Notes: generated from the sequence alone by a model not told the origin. A stretch of DNA of 64,000 nt from an uncultured Flavobacteriales bacterium (GCA_913048435.1 CAJWWC010000002.1:33485-97484); one strand, 5' to 3'. Numbered from the stretch's first letter, positions 5,335 through 57,191 are shown. Made by a program: numbers and translations.

Positions 5335-6729
5335 ATGAACAATTCATTTTCAAAAATATTTTTTTTAATGTTGGTTGTTTTACCTTTTGTAAGTTGTGAA
5401 ACTCCAAAATCATTAACTAATAAGGGTAATAAATTCGCTAACAAAAATTTGTTACAAGATGCTAATTCACACTACATGAAAGCACTTGATAAAAAATCAG
5501 ATTTTATTCCAGCTAAAGAAGGGCTAAAATCTACAGGACAAAAGCAAATCAATATTTATTTAGATGATTTTTTTAAGTCCAAAAACTTTGGTGATAATAG
5601 AGCTGCGATATATCATTACAGAGATGCAAATGAAATGAAAGAAAAATTAAAAAGGTACAATATAGACATAAATATTGCAAGTACATACACAGATGACTAC
5701 AACAGCTTGGTTGATGATTACGTCAGCACCACATATTTTGAAGCTATGAACCTATTAGATAATGAAAATTTTCCTGAATCTGAAAAATTACTTAATGAGG
5801 TTGCACTTTTAAAGCCGAACTTCAAAGATGTTAATAATCTTAAAAACGTAGCTACTTATGAGCCAATTTACAGAAAAGCTAATGAATTTCTTGAAATAGA
5901 GAAATTTCGATCTGCCTATTTTGAGTATAATAAGATCCCTGAATCATACCAGAAAACACAACAAAGAAAAAAAATGGCTCTAGAAGCTGGACAATTTACT
6001 ATTGCAATTGTAGAATTTCAAAATTCTACTCGGCAAAAAGGTGGCGAATCGGCTATATCGGCACAATTGAGCGATAAAATAATGAAACTTAATAATCCAT
6101 TCATCAAACTTGTTGACAGAACTTATACTCAAAGTTTTATAGAGGAACAAATTTTAGGTCTTAGTGGTCAAGTATCACAAAATACCAACGCACAGGCAGG
6201 TAAGCTTGTAGGTGTAAAGTCTATAATTTCTGGAAAGCTCGTAACTTTTTCCAAACAAAAAAATCCAATCGTCACCACTGAAAAAAAAGCTTGGGCTGAA
6301 AGAAAAGTTCGTAAATATGATAAAGAAACTGATAAATATTTTTATGAAACAGTGTATGACAAAATAAAATACAAAGAATTTAAAGGAAATAATAGTGTAC
6401 AAATAAGTTTTCAGTTTCAACTTATCTCTACAGAAAGTGGAGAAATACTTTTAACAAAACTAATTAATTTAAGCCGTCGTGATGAAGTACATTTTGCTGA
6501 ATCAAACATCAACTATAAAAATATTTTACCAGGAAATTGGAGGTGGCAAACTAAACAAAGTCCAAACGATATTGTAGAGACTTCATATTCTCAAAAAAGA
6601 GCATTAAGAAATTTATTTAAGAACAAGAAAAATCTGCTATCAGTGAACGATTTAGCAAACGAAATCTATGAAGAAATTGCAACAGAGATAAGTCACATGG
6701 TTAATAATTACAATCCGGAAAATGAATAA
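5335..6729 (+). CDS. Lipoprotein with helical (TPR-like) N-terminal half and CsgG-like C-terminal domain
   Basis: Lipobox LPFVSC. The C-terminal half FTIAIVEFQNSTRQKGGESAISAQLSDKIMKL...FIEEQILGLSGQVSQNTNAQAGKLVGVKSIISGKLVTFS follows the CsgG/LpoB-type pattern. An alternative start at 5305 is possible. Confidence 0.55.
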   Translation: MNNSFSKIFFLMLVVLPFVSCETPKSLTNKGNKFANKNLLQDANSHYMKALDKKSDFIPAKEGLKSTGQKQINIYLDDFFKSKNFGDNRAAIYHYRDANEMKEKLKRYNIDINIASTYTDDYNSLVDDYVSTTYFEAMNLLDNENFPESEKLLNEVALLKPNFKDVNNLKNVATYEPIYRKANEFLEIEKFRSAYFEYNKIPESYQKTQQRKKMALEAGQFTIAIVEFQNSTRQKGGESAISAQLSDKIMKLNNPFIKLVDRTYTQSFIEEQILGLSGQVSQNTNAQAGKLVGVKSIISGKLVTFSKQKNPIVTTEKKAWAERKVRKYDKETDKYFYETVYDKIKYKEFKGNNSVQISFQFQLISTESGEILLTKLINLSRRDEVHFAESNINYKNILPGNWRWQTKQSPNDIVETSYSQKRALRNLFKNKKNLLSVNDLANEIYEEIATEISHMVNNYNPENE

Positions 6730-30373: not shown

Positions 30374-31897
30374 TCAAAGCGGTAAAACTACAAAATTAGT
30401 ATCTAGTGGATTAAGCTCTTCTTTCAACTTTTTTATAAAGTTATCACCATACTTTAGGTAATATGGAATAAAGTTATCGTAACGCTCTTGTAAAAAACGG
30501 TTTGGAAAAAAGCTTGTTTTAATTTTAGAAATCTTAGATAAAGCTAATTCATGCTTTTGCTTTTCTATTTTGTGTAGTTTTTTACTTAAATTTTCTAAAG
30601 ATTTTTTTTGTCTTTGGTGTTCGGCATCTATCATAGGCTCATATACCCTATCTTTAAACTTATCTTTTATGGAATGAAATATTTCGCTCAAAGACTCCAC
30701 TTTACTTTCTAGTGACAAATTAGCTTGATTTTGAACATATCTCTTGTGTAAATCGGATTCGGAACTAAAGAAATCTTCAAAAGAAAAACCTAAGTGATTT
30801 ATTTTATCTATGTTAGATGTCGTAGTTATGATGACTGAATTTCTCAAAACTAAAATAGGAAATGGTATATGTTCAGACTCAAAAGCTGTTTTTAACTGCA
30901 TCCAATAAGACAATTCGGCACCACCTCCAATATATGCTAGATTAGGAAGAATCATTTCTTGATATAATGGACGTAATAGAACGTTAGGGCTAAATTTTGT
31001 TGGATTGGCATCTATCAATTCATCATCCAATGGATTAATAATCCTTTTTCTACTAGACTGATCTAAATGAAAAAAGTTACAATTTCTAATAAAAGCTTGA
31101 ACTTTATATTTTTGACTAAGCTTTTCAGATTGCGAAGCAATAAGAGGATAAAATGAATGGTCTTGTATGTCTTTCTTCATAATATCCACAAAGGACTTTT
31201 TTAACTCAATATCATCACCATCAATGATAACAAGTCCATCGTATTTAAATAATTCATTTAACAAAATACGTGTTGCATTGGCTAGATTAAGTGAAGAATA
31301 GGCTTTATTAAAAATAGCTTTTAATCGCTCAGCATTTTTACCCTTACCTATAATTAAGTTTAAATCTTCCAAAACACTAGAGAAGTCAGATAAACTCATT
31401 CTACCTACTGCCCCACCTTGACTGCTATCCCATCGAATAGTCTGGCCAAATAAATTGATATGATTAATCTCATCAAAATCGTGATCTTCACTAGCTAACC
31501 AAAATACAGGCACAAAATGTTTGGAGGGGTATTTTTTCTTTAAAGCAAGACTTAAATTAATAGTAGACACTATTTTATATATAAAATATAAAGGCCCTGT
31601 AAAAATACACAACTGATGGCCTGTAGTTATTGTAAAAGTGTCTGTAGATTCTAATGATTCTATGTTAGATTGTGTCAAATCAGATAAATCAATGTCTTGG
31701 TTTTGTTTTTTCAAAACGTTAACCAAAGTCTTTCTATCGATATGAGATTGGCTTTTTTCCTCAATCTGATTATGAAAGTTATCAATAGTACTGTAACGAC
31801 CATAAAAAGAAGTTAATTCGATACTTTCAGACAAATAGTCTTGCACTAGAGGACTTAGAAAGTTAATTTTACGATATGGTATTTTAATAGAACTCAC
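30374..31897 (-). CDS. bshC: Bacillithiol biosynthesis cysteine-adding enzyme BshC
   Basis: 507 aa. N-terminal ...LVQDYL.., TGHQLCIFTGPLYFIYKIVSTINL, FWLASEDHDFDEINH and a C-terminal coiled-coil region fit BshC. Confidence 0.7.
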   Translation of the reverse strand: MSSIKIPYRKINFLSPLVQDYLSESIELTSFYGRYSTIDNFHNQIEEKSQSHIDRKTLVNVLKKQNQDIDLSDLTQSNIESLESTDTFTITTGHQLCIFTGPLYFIYKIVSTINLSLALKKKYPSKHFVPVFWLASEDHDFDEINHINLFGQTIRWDSSQGGAVGRMSLSDFSSVLEDLNLIIGKGKNAERLKAIFNKAYSSLNLANATRILLNELFKYDGLVIIDGDDIELKKSFVDIMKKDIQDHSFYPLIASQSEKLSQKYKVQAFIRNCNFFHLDQSSRKRIINPLDDELIDANPTKFSPNVLLRPLYQEMILPNLAYIGGGAELSYWMQLKTAFESEHIPFPILVLRNSVIITTTSNIDKINHLGFSFEDFFSSESDLHKRYVQNQANLSLESKVESLSEIFHSIKDKFKDRVYEPMIDAEHQRQKKSLENLSKKLHKIEKQKHELALSKISKIKTSFFPNRFLQERYDNFIPYYLKYGDNFIKKLKEELNPLDTNFVVLPL

Positions 31898-32027
31898 TCA
31901 GCGCAAAAGTAAGTAAAAATGTAATTTTTATGTAACAAAAACACAGGGAGATAAATTAGAACAATTGACTTAACTTAAGACTTATATTAAAATTAATTAA
32001 ATATTCAGCTTATAAACCATACAAATC

Positions 32028-32404
32028 TTAATGGTCAGCGTGGGTGATTTTGACTTTGGCAAAGTCACCCGTTCTTACATAAACATTTGAAGCTTTTACT
32101 AAAACTTCATTATCTAAGAGTTAGGAATTTCCTTATCTAAGTCTGGCTTATAGCGATCGGACAAACAACCAGTAACAAATAACTTGTCTATTTTAACATT
32201 AGATTTTCGTTCTGCCTGTTCAATGATAGTATTAATAGACTCTTCTTTAGCATTGTCAATGAAGCCACAGGTGTTGATAACCACAACATTAGCATACTTT
32301 TTATCCGATTCATGATCCACATCCATATCATTGGCTTTCAATTGCCCCATCAACACTTCTGAATCGTAAATATTTTTAGAATACCCTAGAGTGATAACAT
32401 TGAT
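32028..32404 (-). pseudogene. rimO: rimO (ribosomal protein S12 methylthiotransferase) relic: N-terminal MTTase fragment plus out-of-frame TRAM tail; radical-SAM core deleted
   Basis: 32404..32117 reads INVITLGYSKNIYDSEVLMGQL...VVINTCGFIDNAKEE...VTGCLSDRYKPDLDKEIPNS*. It is preceded in frame by TAA TAG, and the first cluster Cys is replaced by Tyr. 32120..32031 (another frame) reads LLDNEVLVKASNVYVRTGDFAKVKITHADH*. No CxxxCxxC region is present. Confidence 0.75.
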
Positions 32405-32434
32405 CTATTATTCTTTAATGACTTTGTTTTCACG

Positions 32435-33385
32435 TTAGTTGAATAAAGAATCTACAAACTCTCTCTTGTTGAATACTTGTAAATCTTCAATTCCCTCACC
32501 CACACCGATGTAGCGAACAGGAATTTTGAATTGGTCGGATATACCAATGATTACGCCACCTTTAGCTGTACCATCTAATTTACTAAGAGCTATAGAGTCT
32601 ACTTTTGTTGCTAAGGTAAATTGCTTGGCTTGTTCTATTGCGTTTTGCCCAGTAGAAGCATCTAAAACTAACATAACATCGTGAGGAGCATTAGGAATGA
32701 CTTTAGACATAACTTTTCTTATCTTAGTGAGCTCATTCATAAGATTAACTTTATTATGTAAACGGCCTGCCGTATCAATAATAACCACATCAGCTCCTTT
32801 ATTTTTAGATAACTGAACAGTATCAAAAGCTACTGATGCAGGGTCAGAACCCATTTCTTGTTTTACGATATCTACTCCTACTCTTTCAGACCAAATAACC
32901 AATTGGTCAACTGCAGCTGCTCTAAAAGTATCCGCCGCTCCTAAAACTACCTTCTTACCAGCTTGTTTGAATTGATGAGCTAATTTTCCGATGGTGGTAG
33001 TTTTACCCACACCATTCACCCCTACTACCATTATAACATGTGGTTCATCAGTTTTAGGAACTACAAATTCAAACTCATTCGAATTATTACTTTCTTCAAG
33101 TAAAAGACTCATTTCCTCTTTGAGAAAGGTGTTCAATTCTTTAGTGTTAAGGTATTTGTCTTTAGCTACCCTTTGTTCTAGTCTTTCAATAATTTTTAGA
33201 GTTGTTTCAACACCAATGTCAGAGGTAATTAAGGCTTCTTCAATATTATCTAATGCATCCTCATCAACTTTAGACTTTCCCGCAACCGCACGAGAAAGTT
33301 TTCCGAAAACATTTTCTTTAGTCTTTTCTAAACCTTTGTCTAGTTTGTCTTTTTTATCTTTTGAAAAAAAACCAAATATTCCCAT
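32435..33385 (-). CDS. ftsY: Signal recognition particle receptor FtsY
   Basis: MGIFGFFSKDKK start (the track start at 33436 adds 17 unlikely residues). GVNGVGKTTTIGKLA, DTAGRLHNK and LSKLDGTAKGG. Confidence 0.9.
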   Translation of the reverse strand: MGIFGFFSKDKKDKLDKGLEKTKENVFGKLSRAVAGKSKVDEDALDNIEEALITSDIGVETTLKIIERLEQRVAKDKYLNTKELNTFLKEEMSLLLEESNNSNEFEFVVPKTDEPHVIMVVGVNGVGKTTTIGKLAHQFKQAGKKVVLGAADTFRAAAVDQLVIWSERVGVDIVKQEMGSDPASVAFDTVQLSKNKGADVVIIDTAGRLHNKVNLMNELTKIRKVMSKVIPNAPHDVMLVLDASTGQNAIEQAKQFTLATKVDSIALSKLDGTAKGGVIIGISDQFKIPVRYIGVGEGIEDLQVFNKREFVDSLFN

Positions 33386-33461
33386 AGTTAATGATGTGTT
33401 TTTAAACAGAAAAAGCTCCTTTTGCAAGAAGCTCAAAACTCTTAAATTATAAAGTTGGGAC

Positions 33462-40999: not shown

Positions 41000-41061
41000 T
41001 TTGGTTTTTTAAGACAAATTAATTGTCGAAATTTGTACTTAAATTATATATATTCCATAAT

Positions 41062-44000
41062 ATGTTAAAGACTTTTTATTTTTCATTAATATTTCTACTG
41101 ACTGTAAATTTTGCTTATGCCCAAAAAAATTGGGCACAAGATATTCATAACGATGAAAAATCTTTATATGAATTACAAGAATCCTTTGAAAATTACTGGC
41201 AAGATAAAATCATTGGTAAAGGTAAAGGATGGAAACCGTTTAAAAGAAGAGAAGCATTTATGGAACCCCGAGTATTTCCTTCAGGATTTTTTCCCTACGA
41301 AAAATTATATGTTGAGTATAATAAACTAAAAAATCAGCCCAAGAATACTTTTCAGACAACGTACGAAGCCAATTGGCAAGCTTTCGGCCCTACTGATGTT
41401 CCTCTACAAAATAGTGGTAGAAAAAGAGGCGTTGGCAGAATTAATAATGTAACTTTTGATCCAAATAACGATAATATTTTATGGGTAGGATCTCCATCAG
41501 GTGGTCTTTGGAAATCTATTGATGGTGGTCAAAACTGGACATCTAATACTGATTTATTACCAAATTTGGGCGTTTCTGATATTGCTATTGATCCCTCTAA
41601 CTCAAATATAATGTACATTATTACAGGTGATAGAGATTCAGATGACACTTATGCTTATGGATTAATGAAATCCACAGATGGTGGTGAAAGTTGGAATTCT
41701 ACTGGACTATCTTTCAACATTAATAGTGCATATAGAGGAAATAGAATACTAATTAATCCAAATAACACAAATATTTTAATTGTTTCTACTAGAAAATCTG
41801 GATATGGTGAGACCTATCGTTCGATTGATGGTGGCAACAATTGGGAATTAGTTCTTCAAGGACCAAATTTGATATCCATGGAATTTAACACAATAAATTC
41901 CAATCATATATACGCTGTAACTACTGGTACTAGTAAATACTATCGCTCCTTCGATAATGGACAAACATGGAGCAATGTTACCAATAATTCAGGACTTCCA
42001 AACTCTGGAAATGCCAGAGGAATAGTGGCAGTAACAACTGCAAACCCAAATGTTGTATATATTCTTTACAGTAATGGAGGAGGGGGGTTTGGAGGTATTT
42101 ATAAATCGACTGATGGAGGTTACACTTTTACACTTCAGTCAGACATGCCAAATATTTTAAGTTGGGAAGTTGATGGTTCTGGAGAAGGTGGACAAGGAAC
42201 CTATGATCTAGCTCTTGCTGTGTCTCCTATTAATGAAAATATAATTTACATTGGAGGAATTAATATATGGAAATCCACAAACGGTGGCGCAGATTTTAAC
42301 ATAAGTAGCCATTGGTATGGAGCTGACGGAATTGAATATGCCCATGCCGATCAACATATTCTAAAATTTAATCCATCAAACAATATACTATATGCTGGAA
42401 ATGATGGTGGATTATACAAAACCGAAAACAACGGTCAAAACTGGACTGATATTAGTGATGGCTTGCAAATAACGCAATTTTACAAAATAGGTATATCTCA
42501 AACTGATTATGGTCTTTTACTTGGAGGCACTCAGGATAATGGGACCCTTAGAGGTAATTATCAGAATGATTGGGATGCTGTAAGAGGTGGTGATGGAATG
42601 GAATGCGCCATTGATCCAACAAATCCTTCAATTATGTATTCAGAGCTTTATTATGGTGATATAGCTATTTCTACAAATGGAGGTCAAAATTGGGATAATA
42701 TTGCTCCTGACAGTGACGGAGCATGGATTACACCCTACGAGATTGACCAAAACAATCCAAACAGGATAATAATTGGATATGATGTATTGTATGAAAGTTT
42801 AGATTATGGAACTAGTTGGAGTACAATTTCTGAAACATTTAATAATTCTGGAAATATTGATGTAATCGCTCTATCAAATTCAAATTCTGATGTAATATTA
42901 GTTTCCGAAACAAACAAACTATACAAAACTACAGACGGTGGTATTAATTGGCAAAATATTAGTTCAGGGCTTCCGAATCGAACAATTACTGACATAACAA
43001 TTCATCCAAACAATGAGAATAGAGTTTGGATTACCTTTTCTGGATACTCTGATAATGATAAAGTTTTCTACACCAATGATTTAGGTCAGAATTGGATGAA
43101 TATTTCATATGATTTACCTAATCTTCCGACTAATTGTATTTTATTTTACGAACCTAATGAAACTTTATTTATTGGGACCGATATTGGAGTTTTTTACAGA
43201 GATAGTTCAATGATCAATTGGGAAATGTTTAATCAAGGATTGCCAAATGTAATTGTAACTGAATTGGAGCATCATATCAATTCCAATAAATTATTTGCCG
43301 CTACATATGGTAGAGGTGTATGGGTTAGTGACCTACCAGCGACAGCTCCTCCTATTGCTTCATTTGACTTCACGATTGTTGATGAATGTGCTGGAATTGT
43401 TAATTTTAACAATAATTCAATAAACGCATCATCTACAGAATGGATTTTTGGTGATAGTTCTGATAATTCAATTGAAAATAATACTACACATCAATTTGTT
43501 GTAGATGGCAATTATGATGTAACGTTAATTGTAAACAATATTTTAGGTTCTGATTCCATTTCACAAACAATTAATATAGATGTAATAGATCTTCCATCCA
43601 TTATCGAAAATGAAAGTTGTACACCATCAGCACTTGAACTATTTGCTGAAAGCAATAATTCTAATTCAGTAATTAATTGGTTTGATAGTCCAAGCAATGG
43701 AAATTTATTATATACTGGCAATACTTACACTACTGACATCCTGTACGAGACTACATCTTTCTATGTTTCATCATCTGAAGAAATTAGTTCGTCAAATATT
43801 GGAGAAATTCAACATCTAGGAGATAATGAATATAGTGGTTCGTCTAACAGTTCTGGTGGACTAGTTTTTGATGTATACAAAAGTTTTATTTTAGAATCAG
43901 TTGATGTTTACACAAATCAAGCAGGAGAACGTAAAATAATATTGTTAGATGATGACAACAATATTATTGCTGAACAAACTGAATACATTCCACAATCAAA

Positions 44001-45213
44001 TAATGAACCATATACAATTGTTTTGAATTTTCAAATAAGCCCCGGTTTGAATTATCAATTAGCAACTGATGATAATACAAACATTGAAAATTTTGGAGGG
44101 ACTAATCCACAATTGAAAAGAACAAGTAATGATATTCAGTTATTTTTTCCATATGTTTTTAATGACGTAATTAGTTTAAATAGCTCATACTGGTACACTG
44201 GAGAAGAATTCTTGACAAATTATTACTATTATTTCTATAATTGGAATGTTAAAGAAATTTGTTCAAGTCCTCTTAGTGAAGTAGTGGCTAAAATAGGTAG
44301 TAACGAAGATTTAACAATTAGCGTTGATGAATGCCAATACGACAGCTTAATAATTAGTGCAACAGGAAACTTTACATCTTACGAATGGAATGATGGATCT
44401 AATCAATCATCTTTAACAATTTACGATAGTGGGGAATATACTGTTAATGTACTTGATTCATTAGGATGTATAGCCTCAGAAACTATAAACATTCCATCGC
44501 TTCAATCCTTCACAATTAATGCAAACGAAATCTTGTGTGAAGGGAGTTCTATTTACCTTCAATGTCCCTCTGGACTAATTTCTTATGAGTGGAATACTGG
44601 TGAAAATACTAATGTTATTTCTATTAATTCTGAAGGGGTTTACAATGTTAGCGCTGTTGATATTGATGGCTGTGTCGTTGAGGATGAAATTGAAATAATT
44701 TCAGTAAATCCCATTCAAGTCAATATACAAACTGAAATGGATTCTCTTGTAATATGTAGAGATACTGAATTTTCTTTTAACATTTCATCATCATATGTTA
44801 ATGCTGTTTGGAATAACAGCTTTTCGGATTTATCTTATAATGATGTAGCGTCAAATTTGGGTGAAAACTTAATAACGGTAATTGCTAAAGATGAAAATGG
44901 CTGTTATTCTAACGATACAATTATTTTAAAAGTTGTTGACTGCACATCAATAGATGAATTTTCATTAAAAACAACAATATTTCCTAACCCAACAACAGGT
45001 CAATTTATAGTTAAAGATGTTTCGTTAAATAATGATATTCAAAGAATCAAATTATTAGATTTACAAGGAAGAATAATTCAACAAAGGAAAGGAAATTATA
45101 ATAATGGTATTTTAAAGGAAAAATTTGATTTGAGCAATTTCGTTTCAGGAATCTATCTTATCGAACTATTAACACTTAAAGGCAAAGCTGTAAAGAAAGT
45201 TATATTAAACTAA
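41062..45213 (+). CDS. Very large BNR/Asp-box (sortilin/VPS10-like beta-propeller) protein with PKD-like and Cys-bracketed Ig-like repeats and T9SS C-terminal sorting domain
   Basis: Start at MLKTFYFSLIFLLTVNFAYAQ. More than ten S-x-D-x-G-x-x-W boxes (SIDGGQNW, STDGGESW, SIDGGNNW, SFDNGQTW, STNGGADF, TENNGQNW, STNGGQNW, SLDYGTSW, TTDGGINW, TNDLGQNW). CTD IFPNPTTGQFIV...GIYLIELLTLKGKAVKKVILN. Confidence 0.8.
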   Translation: MLKTFYFSLIFLLTVNFAYAQKNWAQDIHNDEKSLYELQESFENYWQDKIIGKGKGWKPFKRREAFMEPRVFPSGFFPYEKLYVEYNKLKNQPKNTFQTTYEANWQAFGPTDVPLQNSGRKRGVGRINNVTFDPNNDNILWVGSPSGGLWKSIDGGQNWTSNTDLLPNLGVSDIAIDPSNSNIMYIITGDRDSDDTYAYGLMKSTDGGESWNSTGLSFNINSAYRGNRILINPNNTNILIVSTRKSGYGETYRSIDGGNNWELVLQGPNLISMEFNTINSNHIYAVTTGTSKYYRSFDNGQTWSNVTNNSGLPNSGNARGIVAVTTANPNVVYILYSNGGGGFGGIYKSTDGGYTFTLQSDMPNILSWEVDGSGEGGQGTYDLALAVSPINENIIYIGGINIWKSTNGGADFNISSHWYGADGIEYAHADQHILKFNPSNNILYAGNDGGLYKTENNGQNWTDISDGLQITQFYKIGISQTDYGLLLGGTQDNGTLRGNYQNDWDAVRGGDGMECAIDPTNPSIMYSELYYGDIAISTNGGQNWDNIAPDSDGAWITPYEIDQNNPNRIIIGYDVLYESLDYGTSWSTISETFNNSGNIDVIALSNSNSDVILVSETNKLYKTTDGGINWQNISSGLPNRTITDITIHPNNENRVWITFSGYSDNDKVFYTNDLGQNWMNISYDLPNLPTNCILFYEPNETLFIGTDIGVFYRDSSMINWEMFNQGLPNVIVTELEHHINSNKLFAATYGRGVWVSDLPATAPPIASFDFTIVDECAGIVNFNNNSINASSTEWIFGDSSDNSIENNTTHQFVVDGNYDVTLIVNNILGSDSISQTINIDVIDLPSIIENESCTPSALELFAESNNSNSVINWFDSPSNGNLLYTGNTYTTDILYETTSFYVSSSEEISSSNIGEIQHLGDNEYSGSSNSSGGLVFDVYKSFILESVDVYTNQAGERKIILLDDDNNIIAEQTEYIPQSNNEPYTIVLNFQISPGLNYQLATDDNTNIENFGGTNPQLKRTSNDIQLFFPYVFNDVISLNSSYWYTGEEFLTNYYYYFYNWNVKEICSSPLSEVVAKIGSNEDLTISVDECQYDSLIISATGNFTSYEWNDGSNQSSLTIYDSGEYTVNVLDSLGCIASETINIPSLQSFTINANEILCEGSSIYLQCPSGLISYEWNTGENTNVISINSEGVYNVSAVDIDGCVVEDEIEIISVNPIQVNIQTEMDSLVICRDTEFSFNISSSYVNAVWNNSFSDLSYNDVASNLGENLITVIAKDENGCYSNDTIILKVVDCTSIDEFSLKTTIFPNPTTGQFIVKDVSLNNDIQRIKLLDLQGRIIQQRKGNYNNGILKEKFDLSNFVSGIYLIELLTLKGKAVKKVILN

Positions 45214-53819: not shown

Positions 53820-56800
53820 ATGCGACTATTAATTACTTACTTTTTACTTTTATCAATAAATGCTATAGCTCAAGACAAGTTTGTAGCTCACGACTATATC
53901 AATGGTAATATACCTTCATATAAGCCTACATTTCAAGAATCATTTCCAAAATGGGCAAAGTTATTGTACGAAAATGATCCTAATTTTTATGACATACAAC
54001 AAAACTATATCCTTTGGAAATTAGAAAATTCAAAAAAAGAATTCAAAGCCGTAGAACGGTATTACAAGATATGGTCTAGACATATAATTCCATATGTTTC
54101 TGAAGATGGTAGCATAATTATTCCCATACAGTCAGCAGATGTTGAAAGTCAAAATATGCCAAATATTGTATCTGATAATAACTGGGAATTTTTAGGTCCA
54201 AAAGAGACTTTTTTTCTCAATGAAACTGGTGGTGAAATAGCAATGTCTAGTTGCCCATGGCAAGTAAATGTATACTCCTTTGATGTCTCAAAAAGTAATA
54301 ATAATGTATTGTATTGTGGTACAGAAACCGGATTTGTCAATAAATCTATAGATAATGGAGATAGCTGGACAATTTTGGCTAAGGAGTATAGTTTTAAAGG
54401 AGGAATAACCGCCCTAGCTATTGACCCTCAAGACGAACAACTTGTCTATCTTAGTGCCAATTCACAAATCCATAAAACATCTGATGGTGGACAAAATTGG
54501 AATCCCATACTAGCTAATGATGGGCTATTTAGTTCTGATAAAATCATAATTGACGAAAATAACTCTAATACGATAATTTCAGCGGGTTCTTCTGGTATAC
54601 ATCGTTCCATTGATGGTGGGCAAAATTGGTCTAACCCATCACAATTACAAACCTATGATATTCATTTCAAAAGCGATGATGCATCGACCGTTTATGCCAT
54701 AGCTACATTAAATGGTTATTTTAAATTTCTTATCTCAACTAATGGAGGGCAAACTTTTACAGAATCCAATTCATTCCCTAATGACATAGAAAATGAGTCA
54801 GGAGCATTAATAGCAGTAAGTAATGATGATGCTGAACATGTTTTTGCTTTACTTTTAAGTTCCAATGACACTCCCATTCTCTATAAAGGAAATCCTCAAA
54901 GTGGTAATTGGGAACTATTAGCAACTGGACAAACAGATGATTTTCCAATTGACAATTGGCAAGGTTTCTATGACCTTGTTTTTGAGGTATCTCCTGATGA
55001 CTCAGACGTAATTTTTGCAGGCACAGCTAGCCTATATAAGTCAATTGATGGTGGCGAATCCTTCAATATTGTAGGAGGTTATGGAGGAGACTTTTCTATT
55101 CATCCAGATGCTCAATGTATGGTACTTCTAGAAAACAATAGAGCATGGTTAGCAACAGATGGTGGCTTGACCTATTCTTCAGATAATTTTAGCCAAACAA
55201 ATAATGCTCAATCCAAAAATAATTTATTAGTCGGTTCTGATATGTGGGGATTTGACCAAGGTTGGAATGAGGACATTGTTGTTGGAGGAAGGTACCATAA
55301 CGGAAATACAGCGATTGCTGACTTTTATCAGCCAAAAGCCTTGAGAATGGGTGGTGCTGAATCACCAACAGGATGGGTTATGAAAGGAAAAAGTAGACAT
55401 GTTGCTTTTAATGATTTAGGACCGGGCTGGATTTTGCCAACTTCAGCAGAAACATCACCTGAAGGAAGATTCCCTTTTTCTAAATATCCGAATATGGACG
55501 AATATGGTGGTAGAAGAGGAAATATGGTTTTCCACCCCAATTATTACGAAGTTATATATTTAGGAGAAGGTGATAGTTTTTGGAAAAGCAATGATATGGG
55601 ACTTAGTTTTGAATTATTGCATGATTTTGGTCAAAGAGTAAGATATATTCAAATCGCATACAGCGATCCAAATATAATTTATGCTGATGTCGTTAGTTTA
55701 GGATTATATAAATCTGAAGATGGTGGTTTTACTTGGACAGCTAAACCTAATTTAACTAATTCACAAGATGGCGGGAGTTATTGGGAAGGAAAACTTCATT
55801 TCGACATATCACCAAATGATGCCAATACGATATACGCTTGTCAACAAAATGGAACTTGGTCATCAGATTTAGGAAAGATTTTCAAATCTATCGATGGTGG
55901 TGATAGTTGGACAGACTGGACGGCAAACCTAAATCCTTATGCTAAATCAATAGTCGTACAACCCGATCTATCGGGTAATGATATTGTCTATTTATTTACC
56001 TCAAATATCAACAATCAAGATGCTCAATGCTACATTAGAAGTGATGGAGAAAGCGAATGGTCTATTTATGGCAATGGATTTCCTGTAGGCACTAACCCTA
56101 ATCACGCGCTAGCATTTTATAGAGATAGTAAGTTAAGAATTGCTGGCACATCAGGAGTATGGGAAATCGACTTAGATCAAGTGAATTTTTTACCTATTAT
56201 TCAGCCTTGGGTAAATAGTCCTATTATCGATTGTGTAAATGATACTATTCAGCTGGAAGACCATTCTATCCTGAATCATGAAAATTGTAGTTGGACATGG
56301 AGCATTGACCCTGAACCTTTGTATATTGAAAACACTAATATTAGAAATCCAAAAGTTGTATTAGGTGAGGTAGGTAATTACTCTATTACTTTAACTGTTA
56401 ACAAAGATGGTAATACATACTCTAAAACCATTGAAAATATGATTTATGCTAGCGAATGTCCATCGCTAGAAAACTGCAACAATCCAGCCTTAGTTTCAAA
56501 GGAGGATTGGAGTTTAAGGTATGTTGATAGTGAAGAAATCAATTATCCTGGTTATGCTACTATGTCTTTTGATGATGATCCAAGTACTATATGGCATACT
56601 CAGTGGAGCACAGGTGATATACCCTATCCTCATGAGATACAAATTGACTTAAATAATGAGTATAAAATTTTTGAGTTTACTTACCAAACAAGACAAGATG
56701 GGCAAAATGGGCGAATTAAAAATATGGAATTATATTTCAGTAACGACTCTAATGATTTTGGCACATCCGATACCGTCATTCAATTTGAAAATACATCAGC

Positions 56801-57191
56801 ACCACAAACTATCATTTTTCAAAATCCTAAAATAGGTAGTCATATGAAGATTGTTGCTCTCTCAGAAGTTAATGGAGGACCATGGTCCTCTGCTGCTGAA
56901 TTTGATTTAAAAGCATGTTATAATACTTCAAGAATTGAAACAAAAGATTTTGAATATCTTAGTGCTTATCCTATTCCAACAATTGGTCCATTAAAAGTGT
57001 CCTTGCCCTCAACTGGAAGCTATCAATATGCTATATATTCTATTGATGGAAGATATCTTAAAAGCAGTTCGTCTAAAGATAATACCGATTATTTAGAATT
57101 AGATTTATCTAACTATGAAGACGGTGTGTATGTTATAGAAGTTCTTTCTAACAATAACAGAAAATACCTCATAAAATCTATTAAAAAGTAA
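53820..57191 (+). CDS. Large BNR/Asp-box beta-propeller protein with PKD-like domain, F5/8 type C (discoidin) domain and T9SS C-terminal sorting domain
   Basis: Asp-boxes SIDNGDSW, TSDGGQNW, SIDGGQNW, STNGGQTF, SIDGGESF, SEDGGFTW and SIDGGDSW. Discoidin-like WSLRYVDSEE...DDDPSTIWHTQW...PHEIQIDL...FTYQTRQDGQNGRIKNMELYFSND. CTD ...DGVYVIEVLSNNNRKYLIKSIKK. Confidence 0.8.
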   Translation: MRLLITYFLLLSINAIAQDKFVAHDYINGNIPSYKPTFQESFPKWAKLLYENDPNFYDIQQNYILWKLENSKKEFKAVERYYKIWSRHIIPYVSEDGSIIIPIQSADVESQNMPNIVSDNNWEFLGPKETFFLNETGGEIAMSSCPWQVNVYSFDVSKSNNNVLYCGTETGFVNKSIDNGDSWTILAKEYSFKGGITALAIDPQDEQLVYLSANSQIHKTSDGGQNWNPILANDGLFSSDKIIIDENNSNTIISAGSSGIHRSIDGGQNWSNPSQLQTYDIHFKSDDASTVYAIATLNGYFKFLISTNGGQTFTESNSFPNDIENESGALIAVSNDDAEHVFALLLSSNDTPILYKGNPQSGNWELLATGQTDDFPIDNWQGFYDLVFEVSPDDSDVIFAGTASLYKSIDGGESFNIVGGYGGDFSIHPDAQCMVLLENNRAWLATDGGLTYSSDNFSQTNNAQSKNNLLVGSDMWGFDQGWNEDIVVGGRYHNGNTAIADFYQPKALRMGGAESPTGWVMKGKSRHVAFNDLGPGWILPTSAETSPEGRFPFSKYPNMDEYGGRRGNMVFHPNYYEVIYLGEGDSFWKSNDMGLSFELLHDFGQRVRYIQIAYSDPNIIYADVVSLGLYKSEDGGFTWTAKPNLTNSQDGGSYWEGKLHFDISPNDANTIYACQQNGTWSSDLGKIFKSIDGGDSWTDWTANLNPYAKSIVVQPDLSGNDIVYLFTSNINNQDAQCYIRSDGESEWSIYGNGFPVGTNPNHALAFYRDSKLRIAGTSGVWEIDLDQVNFLPIIQPWVNSPIIDCVNDTIQLEDHSILNHENCSWTWSIDPEPLYIENTNIRNPKVVLGEVGNYSITLTVNKDGNTYSKTIENMIYASECPSLENCNNPALVSKEDWSLRYVDSEEINYPGYATMSFDDDPSTIWHTQWSTGDIPYPHEIQIDLNNEYKIFEFTYQTRQDGQNGRIKNMELYFSNDSNDFGTSDTVIQFENTSAPQTIIFQNPKIGSHMKIVALSEVNGGPWSSAAEFDLKACYNTSRIETKDFEYLSAYPIPTIGPLKVSLPSTGSYQYAIYSIDGRYLKSSSSKDNTDYLELDLSNYEDGVYVIEVLSNNNRKYLIKSIKK

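Follow-up and report, generated by a model that had tools for sequence, protein, structure and literature searches.

The segment 32433..32001 on the minus strand of the window, by which we mean the whole 64-kb stretch of DNA analysed here, from an uncultured marine flavobacterium, is in our judgement a non-functional rimO pseudogene. We assign a probability of about 0.93 to the complete reading, namely that the gene lost its core through an 882-nt deletion at a repeat, that it decayed stepwise and that a second, independent deletion took place in the lineage of L001 and L013. The remnant is a derivative of the RimO family and not a functional member of it. This is ordinary gene decay in a compact genome with a modestly interesting parallelism; neither a new mechanism nor the answer to an open question comes out of it. 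What goes slightly beyond routine is the ordered decay across two haplotypes and the identical deletion in a second lineage. A literature search found no relevant report of a rimO pseudogene.

Place and identity of the remnant

The window carries, in this order, hisS, DUF4625, cinA, an M1 peptidase gene, L33, DUF4295, ftsY, the rimO remnant, bshC, guaA, LysM, lolA and ftsK, and relatives show the same order from hisS to ftsK. The remaining window genes that were checked were intact and typical of free-living marine Bacteroidota. PF02881 and PF00448 (SRP54) identified FtsY through its counterpart in contigs that share the 621-nt relic region without a difference, and its amino acid identity to FtsY of L014 and L010 is 93%; guaA, which comes after bshC, was recognised by Pfam on contigs with the same identical region. 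The initial annotation had placed a relic between ftsY and bshC, and the Pfam matches on the same genes confirmed both neighbours. It had also described decay in an otherwise compact locus, in line with the ftsY-bshC gap of about 538 nt, the widest in the window between ORFs of at least 120 amino acids. The features of the region are the following, in the reading direction of the gene:

32435..33436 (-): ftsY, upstream neighbour, an open reading frame; its stop TAA (32437..32435) sits 1 base before the old rimO start
32433..32431 (-): start codon GTG, ATG in relatives (alignment)
32407..32433 (-): remnant of rimO codons 1-9, VKTKSLKNN, aligned to MRTKSLKNN of L014 and L010; out of frame with the rest of the remnant
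32405..32406 (-): -1 frameshift, codon 10 AAA to AG (alignment); common to L101 and L102
32121..32404 (-): remnant of the MTTase N-terminal (UPF0004) domain, RimO residues 11-105 (PF00919, TIGR01125, tblastn)
32381..32383 (-): Cys18 TGT changed to TAT (Tyr); TGT in L101, L014, L010 and L001
32114..32356 (-): ORF of 80 aa with a GTG start (78 aa from ATG) within the remnant, called in 10 contigs
32112..32121 (-): deletion junction with the sole remaining, mutated copy of ATGTAGAT (alignment)
32120..32117 (-): 2-nt insertion within CTCT, which shifts the frame (alignment)
32031..32111 (-): C-terminal half of the TRAM domain, RimO residues ~403-433, NEVLVKASNVYVRTGDFAKVKITHADH (PF18693; tblastn)
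32028..32030 (-): nonsense TAA at codon 134, Tyr TAC in relatives; common to L101 and L102
32001..32027 (-): final rimO codons past the nonsense codon, DLYGL*AE (alignment; the tblastn match reaches 32004)
32012..32010 (-): second stop (alignment)
32003..32001 (-): old stop, now TAT; TAG in L014 and L010 (alignment)
32000..31898 (-): ancestral rimO-bshC spacer, conserved with L014 and L010
31904..31911 (-): TACTTTTG, beyond the remnant, 6 nt ahead of the GTG of bshC
30374..31897 (-): bshC, downstream neighbour, an intact open reading frame (PF10079 and PF24850 on the same gene in L094-L097)

Two pieces can be translated from the minus strand. Piece 1 (32404..32117) matched the MTTase N-terminal domain PF00919 (E=4e-20, profile positions 3-91 of 98), and its best NCBIfam model was that of RimO, TIGR01125 (E=8.5e-23, 81 bits). 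Piece 2 (32120..32031), taken alone, gave a weak match to Pfam TRAM_2 (PF18693; E=1.4e-3, profile positions 29-54 of 63). Joined together the pieces scored 86 bits against TIGR01125; neither piece 1 nor the joined pieces reached the equivalog cut-off of this model, 356.95 bits. As a reference for tblastn we used the 437-aa RimO of L010 after repair of one probable long-read indel. Its residues 11-105 aligned to 32404..32120 with 88% identity (E=2e-48) and its residues 400-437 to 32117..32004 with 79% identity (E=6e-13), so that both fragments are significantly similar to RimO. Both pieces had been described in the initial annotation, and translation reproduced their peptides and coordinates. 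Its assignment of piece 1 to the N-terminal domain of RimO found agreement between PF00919, TIGR01125 and the 88% identity; that of piece 2 to the TRAM tail, for which TRAM_2 alone is a weak match, was secured by the 79% identity to residues 400-437. Its statement that the entire radical-SAM core had gone was correct as well: no Pfam match to Radical_SAM occurred in the remnant, and residues 106-399 had no counterpart in the window by tblastn. No further methylthiotransferase-like sequence was detected in the 64-kb window when full-length L010 RimO was used as tblastn query.

The tRNA methylthiotransferases MiaB and MtaB (TIGR00089 subfamily, TIGR01574, TIGR01579) share the fold of the MTTase N-terminal domain, and the remnant matched models of this type weakly (E=5e-17 to 6e-7). 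The 88% identity together with the synteny, however, links it with the orthologues of rimO rather than with the tRNA enzymes. In L014 and L010, the loci closest to the window among those listed (88-92% identical in GuaA), rimO lies between the same neighbours, ftsY and bshC. L014 encodes an uninterrupted 437-aa RimO in this position, and L010 has the same 437-aa gene apart from the indel mentioned above. L015-L017 share the gene order, with a longer gap between rimO and bshC. That rimO directly follows ftsY, as had been stated at the outset, was true of this clade and of about 26 of the 80 loci examined from Flavobacteriales but not of Flavobacterium species. With RimO proper (TIGR01125; structure 4JC0 from Thermotoga maritima) the remnant thus has ancestry and the slot after ftsY in common; unlike RimO, it is devoid of residues 108-401 and bears two frameshifts, a nonsense codon and the exchange of a cysteine for tyrosine.

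This cysteine, Cys18, is the first of the three that bind the auxiliary [4Fe-4S] cluster and is nearly invariant in the RimO alignment. Its replacement by Tyr had been noticed before, and the relatives all have TGT at this place. Cluster cysteines 2 and 3 are retained in the window, and the first strand of the domain has been lost to the frameshift. A complete TRAM domain is absent, since only positions 29-54 of the 63 of TRAM_2 are left and these are cut by the TAA. The relic had at first been given the limits 32028-32410. The location stood, whereas the extent had to be enlarged to about 32433..32001, which takes in both gene ends. The remark that no start codon exists is valid for the frame of piece 1 only; a GTG, formerly ATG, precedes VKTKSLKNN in another frame. 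The 'UPF0004' protein predicted by gene callers (P0005, P0121) is an annotation artefact of the pseudogene, and the 78-80-aa ORF behind it should be marked as a rimO pseudogene fragment.

The deletion, its repeat and its counterpart in the L001 lineage

The deletion comprises 882 nt, or 294 codons, is in frame and removed RimO residues 108-401. Lost with it were the linker, the whole radical-SAM core including its CxxxCxxC motif, visible as CDRPCSFC in L014 and L010, and the first half of the TRAM domain. Mapping against relatives, which the initial annotation had suggested, placed both ends at the octamer ATGTAGAT, 882 nt apart. In L010 the octamer is found at gene positions 314 and 1196 (locus positions 6314 and 7197), with a true spacing of 882 nt. 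The E-I-P-N-V-D that closes the N-terminal domain is encoded in part by the first copy, the S-P-D-V-D-N-E of the TRAM domain in part by the second; ATGTAGAT itself specifies the V-D of a repeated P-x-V-D motif (P-N-V-D and P-D-V-D). Removing one copy and the intervening DNA from L010 in silico recreated the junction. The junction reads CCTAACTCTTAGATAA in the window, CCTAACTTAGATAA in L101 and CCTAATGTAGATAA in both L001 and the virtually deleted L010. The deletion probably arose by slipped-strand or microhomology-mediated illegitimate recombination between the ATGTAGAT copies.

The peptide repeat is old. RimO of Thermotoga maritima (4JC0) has IPEVD at about residues 93-97 and APEVD at about 394-398, and L017 has, at these two sites (gene positions 311 and 1193), a 10-nt repeat likewise spaced by 882 nt. 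To judge from these sequences, the repeat (I/A)-P-x-V-D is conserved from Thermotoga to Flavobacteriales, and many rimO genes should therefore contain in-frame microhomology at a distance of 882 nt. In bacteria with deletional bias or streamlined genomes, deletions between short direct repeats are a known source of pseudogenes. The present case resembles them in its 8-nt direct repeats, in the later point mutations and small indels and in the raised pN/pS. It differs from them in that the identical repeat pair was used in two lineages and that one of the product ORFs is open.

This open product, P0001, was the top match of the protein search. It is a 143-aa ORF in which the N-terminal domain is fused in frame to the TRAM tail (..EMPNV|DNEVLVK..), and it aligns to residues 3-101 and 393-430 of 4JC0. 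All three cluster cysteines, C18, C56 and C90, are retained (L001-L009, L013). P0001 occurs on at least ten contigs with the same gene order, where its start overlaps the stop of ftsY and its stop the start of bshC. The junction of L001 and L013 lies at the same repeat as that of the window.

How widespread such forms are was assessed by scanning one genome per GTDB species, which yielded at least 80 Flavobacteriales loci, each checked by tblastn. Among the 80 loci listed, 78 contained a full-length rimO, one was cut by a contig end and one, L013, a MAG representing the L001 lineage, had the mini form; the species of the window was absent among the loci listed. Several candidates had to be discarded. 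Apparent mini-RimO loci, with query residues 1-139 within 396 nt, proved by tblastn to be ordinary full-length genes, the tail having been misaligned to the linker in the scan. P0002, P0004 and P0034, which looked like further cases of decay, were frameshift artefacts of error-prone long-read assemblies in which the neighbouring genes were split too. A search of metagenome contigs with the junction pattern K-E-I/M-P-N/D-V-D-N-E-V returned a single match, L093, an unrelated chance match. The short RimO proteins P0033 and P0058 are probably assembly artefacts. In L010, L012 and L104, which are long-read or low-coverage contigs, bshC, cinA, guaA and the M1 peptidase gene are split by frameshifts.

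Why the same repeat pair served twice is of some interest. ATGTAGAT is not the longest direct repeat in progenitor-like genes, and length alone does not explain its double use. With 19-25 direct-repeat pairs of 8 nt or more in these genes, of which 12-15 are in frame and some measure 9-13 nt, reuse of the same pair by chance would be expected in about 1 in 12 to 1 in 25 cases; the coincidence looks greater than it is, since the second case was found by searching for this very architecture. The P-x-V-D/ATGTAGAT repeat might predispose rimO to recurrent deletion favoured by iron sparing, or the 143-aa fusion might be transiently or newly functional; we regard this pair of ideas as doubtful. If the hotspot idea were true, losing a dispensable two-[4Fe-4S] enzyme would be advantageous in streamlined open-ocean flavobacteria, for example by sparing iron.

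Somewhat less credit still is due to the more definite proposal that the truncated product is a functional small protein, an Fe-S domain with a TRAM tail, which selection would maintain in the L001 lineage at least and would once have maintained in that of the window. The open ORF of L001-L009 and L013, its three cysteines and its overlaps with the ftsY stop and the bshC start would fit such a role, as would the appearance of the same in-frame product twice despite the 19-25 other repeat pairs. The overlaps, however, were probably inherited from the full-length gene, and L001, a clonal lineage, is alone in having the ORF open. In the lineage of the window the mini-ORF is broken, with loss of start frame, one cysteine, junction frame and C-terminus, and is thus not maintained. 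The L001 contigs did not differ by a single base (0 DNA differences among L001-L009) and the branch offers few substitutions for a selection test. We estimate that the L001 deletion is younger than a split at 4.4% nucleotide divergence, a time within which it is no surprise that an ORF of 432 nt has stayed open. Of the TRAM domain profile only half remains, and a single-sequence AlphaFold model of P0001 was uninformative, with a mean pLDDT of 40.6; an alignment with N-terminal fragments, which set the tail against the linker, was left out of the structure prediction. Finally, no other mini-RimO was present among the 120 protein matches listed or the 80 species representatives listed. We regard a function of the mini-ORF as unlikely; in the window lineage it clearly has none.

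The identical junction in both lineages could also suggest a single ancestral deletion, passed on by descent, with the full-length genes in between re-acquired later. We consider this very unlikely. In a bootstrapped neighbour-joining tree of ftsY and guaA, the window grouped with L010 and L014 (100%), then with L017 (95.5%) and then with L015 and L016 (98%). All five of these species lineages have a full-length rimO and are nearer to the window than L001, which falls outside them, so that a shared deletion would need at least three re-acquisitions. The two halves of the relic follow the local phylogeny as well, with 88.6% and 86.7% nucleotide identity to L014 against 74.9% and 67.6% to L001. 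Moreover, each mini allele has a close full-length relative, L014 and L010 on the one side, L104 and L011 on the other. A full-length gene with both copies of ATGTAGAT is present in L104, a sister of L001, and the two cease to align in blastn precisely at these sites. As far as the repeat extends, L011 shares 95.6% identity with L001; beyond it comes GAATATTTTGG, as in full-length genes. From the tree of the flanking genes and the full-length relatives on both sides it follows that the deletion happened twice, and we take the deletions of the window and of L001/L013 to be independent.

Three contigs around this site showed peculiarities of their own. L007:1-2108, set against L001:5656-7763, shows no difference in the last part of ftsY, in the whole mini-rimO and as far as ~120 nt into bshC, and is about 7% divergent from L001 across the remaining bshC; it is either a chimeric metagenome contig or an instance of the mini allele recombined into a second strain background. 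The last 33 nt of the 1,076-nt Tara scaffold L011 (L011:1044-1076), after VDEYFG, match no rimO and no fetched locus and add a stop (..YFGGE*), which could be a scaffold-end artefact or another rimO rearrangement. P0014 (190 aa, on a 1,264-nt NCBI contig) follows the RimO N-terminal domain up to ..EKEMPNVDE and then turns into a NAC/UBA-like sequence (PF01849, PF19026). This is probably a chimeric assembly; its switch point is the P-N-V-D deletion site.

Order of the lesions and relaxed constraint

A 621-nt stretch that reaches from the last part of ftsY across the remnant into bshC was 100% identical in six other contigs (L094-L099), and L100 and L103 were 100% identical over the 421 nt they share with it. 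L094-L099 stem from JGI, ENA and Logan assemblies of up to 388 kb, that is from several samples and different assemblers. A second haplotype, L101/L102, is 98.2% identical. The deletion is present there along with GTG, TAA and the -1 frameshift, yet codon 18 is still TGT (Cys) and the junction, CCTAACTTAGAT, is in frame and reads P-N-L-D.

Alignment of the window with L101, L014, L010 and L001 provided the order of the lesions. The comparison of the haplotypes indicates that the deletion came first or early, that three shared lesions followed it and that two lesions particular to the window came last. In the ancestor, the place between ftsY and bshC was taken by a rimO of 437 aa, which the closest relatives retain today. 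A single 882-nt deletion then joined the two ATGTAGAT copies and left a mini-ORF, which decayed in two steps. The change of ATG to GTG, the -1 frameshift in codon 10 and the change of Tyr to TAA, common to both known haplotypes, came next. The exchange of Cys18 for Tyr and the +2 insertion at the junction, confined to the window haplotype, are the most recent events.

An assembly or sequencing error that hides an intact rimO has a practically negligible probability, although some truncated RimO proteins in databases are long-read artefacts and L010, L012 and L104 have many frameshift-split genes: the sequence recurs without change in six contigs over 621 nt and in two over 421 nt, the neighbouring genes are intact, an 8-nt repeat should be too short for a collapse in k-mer assembly, and the 98.2% haplotype has the deletion together with three of the lesions. 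The misassembly that the initial annotation had named as its possible refutation is excluded by the identical sequence in other assemblies.

The substitutions are also those of a gene that has come under weaker selection. With the codons on which L010 and L014 agree as ancestor, the window branch had 18 non-synonymous and 16 synonymous changes, a pN/pS of 0.26, against 0.09 (L014) and 0.04 (L010) on the full-length sister branches for the same codons. Fisher's test of the window branch against the sister branches gave p=0.03-0.05, with few substitutions. Selective constraint on the remnant is thus relaxed when compared to functional orthologues, on small counts. A rough mixture estimate, which assumes a neutral ratio of 1, suggests that about the last fifth of the window branch was neutral.

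Methylthiolation of S12 and the surroundings of the remnant

RimO is the only known enzyme for the beta-methylthiolation of Asp in ribosomal protein S12, a modification that is exclusively bacterial; the Asp of S12 is universal, whereas RimO exists in 'some bacteria' (PMC10702137). RimO is also among the ribosomal-protein modifiers lost in mollicutes (PMC4014445). The initial annotation had called the modification nearly universal. This was appropriate to the extent that RimO is near-constant in the Flavobacteriales loci listed, but it was overstated in view of the 'some bacteria' (PMC10702137) and of the mollicute loss (PMC4014445). Assuming that there is no second rimO, which would be unusual, the organism probably does without methylthiolation of S12 Asp (Asp88 in E. 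coli). The gene for S12, rpsL, was not found within the 64-kb window. E. coli rimO knockouts are reportedly viable with a mild growth defect, in work attributed to Anton et al. 2008. The loss of rimO would be tolerated if, as it seems, RimO is dispensable.

The predicted loss would supply an example from nature alongside the other evidence that the methylthio-Asp of S12 is dispensable. Two small-genome marine lineages are now found without the catalytic core, against near-universal retention among the Flavobacteriales loci listed. With the ORF still open in one lineage and five more lesions in the other, they constitute a small datable example of streamlining decay, in which a microhomology deletion followed by point decay removes a gene during genome streamlining.

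As to the immediate surroundings, scans of 31800..32600 for sigma-70 promoters and terminators gave nothing above shuffled expectation, and Rfam and tRNA scans produced no match in the remnant region. The element TACTTTTG upstream of bshC is conserved in L014, and L010 has it with one substitution, TATTTTTG. It fits the Bacteroidota -7 promoter motif TAnnTTTG. It may represent a putative promoter of bshC's own, from which the gene would be transcribed with a very short leader and without dependence on the dead rimO.

Further observations concerned other parts of the window. A 153-aa ORF antisense within ftsY (32991..33452, plus strand) is in all likelihood a spurious shadow ORF. The plus strand also encodes two very large proteins that are predicted to be secreted, one of 1,396 aa (41023..45213) with Sortilin/BNR repeats and one of 1,123 aa (53820..57191) with Sortilin/BNR repeats and an F5/8 type C domain. 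Both have a C-terminal Por_Secre_tail sorting domain of type IX secretion.
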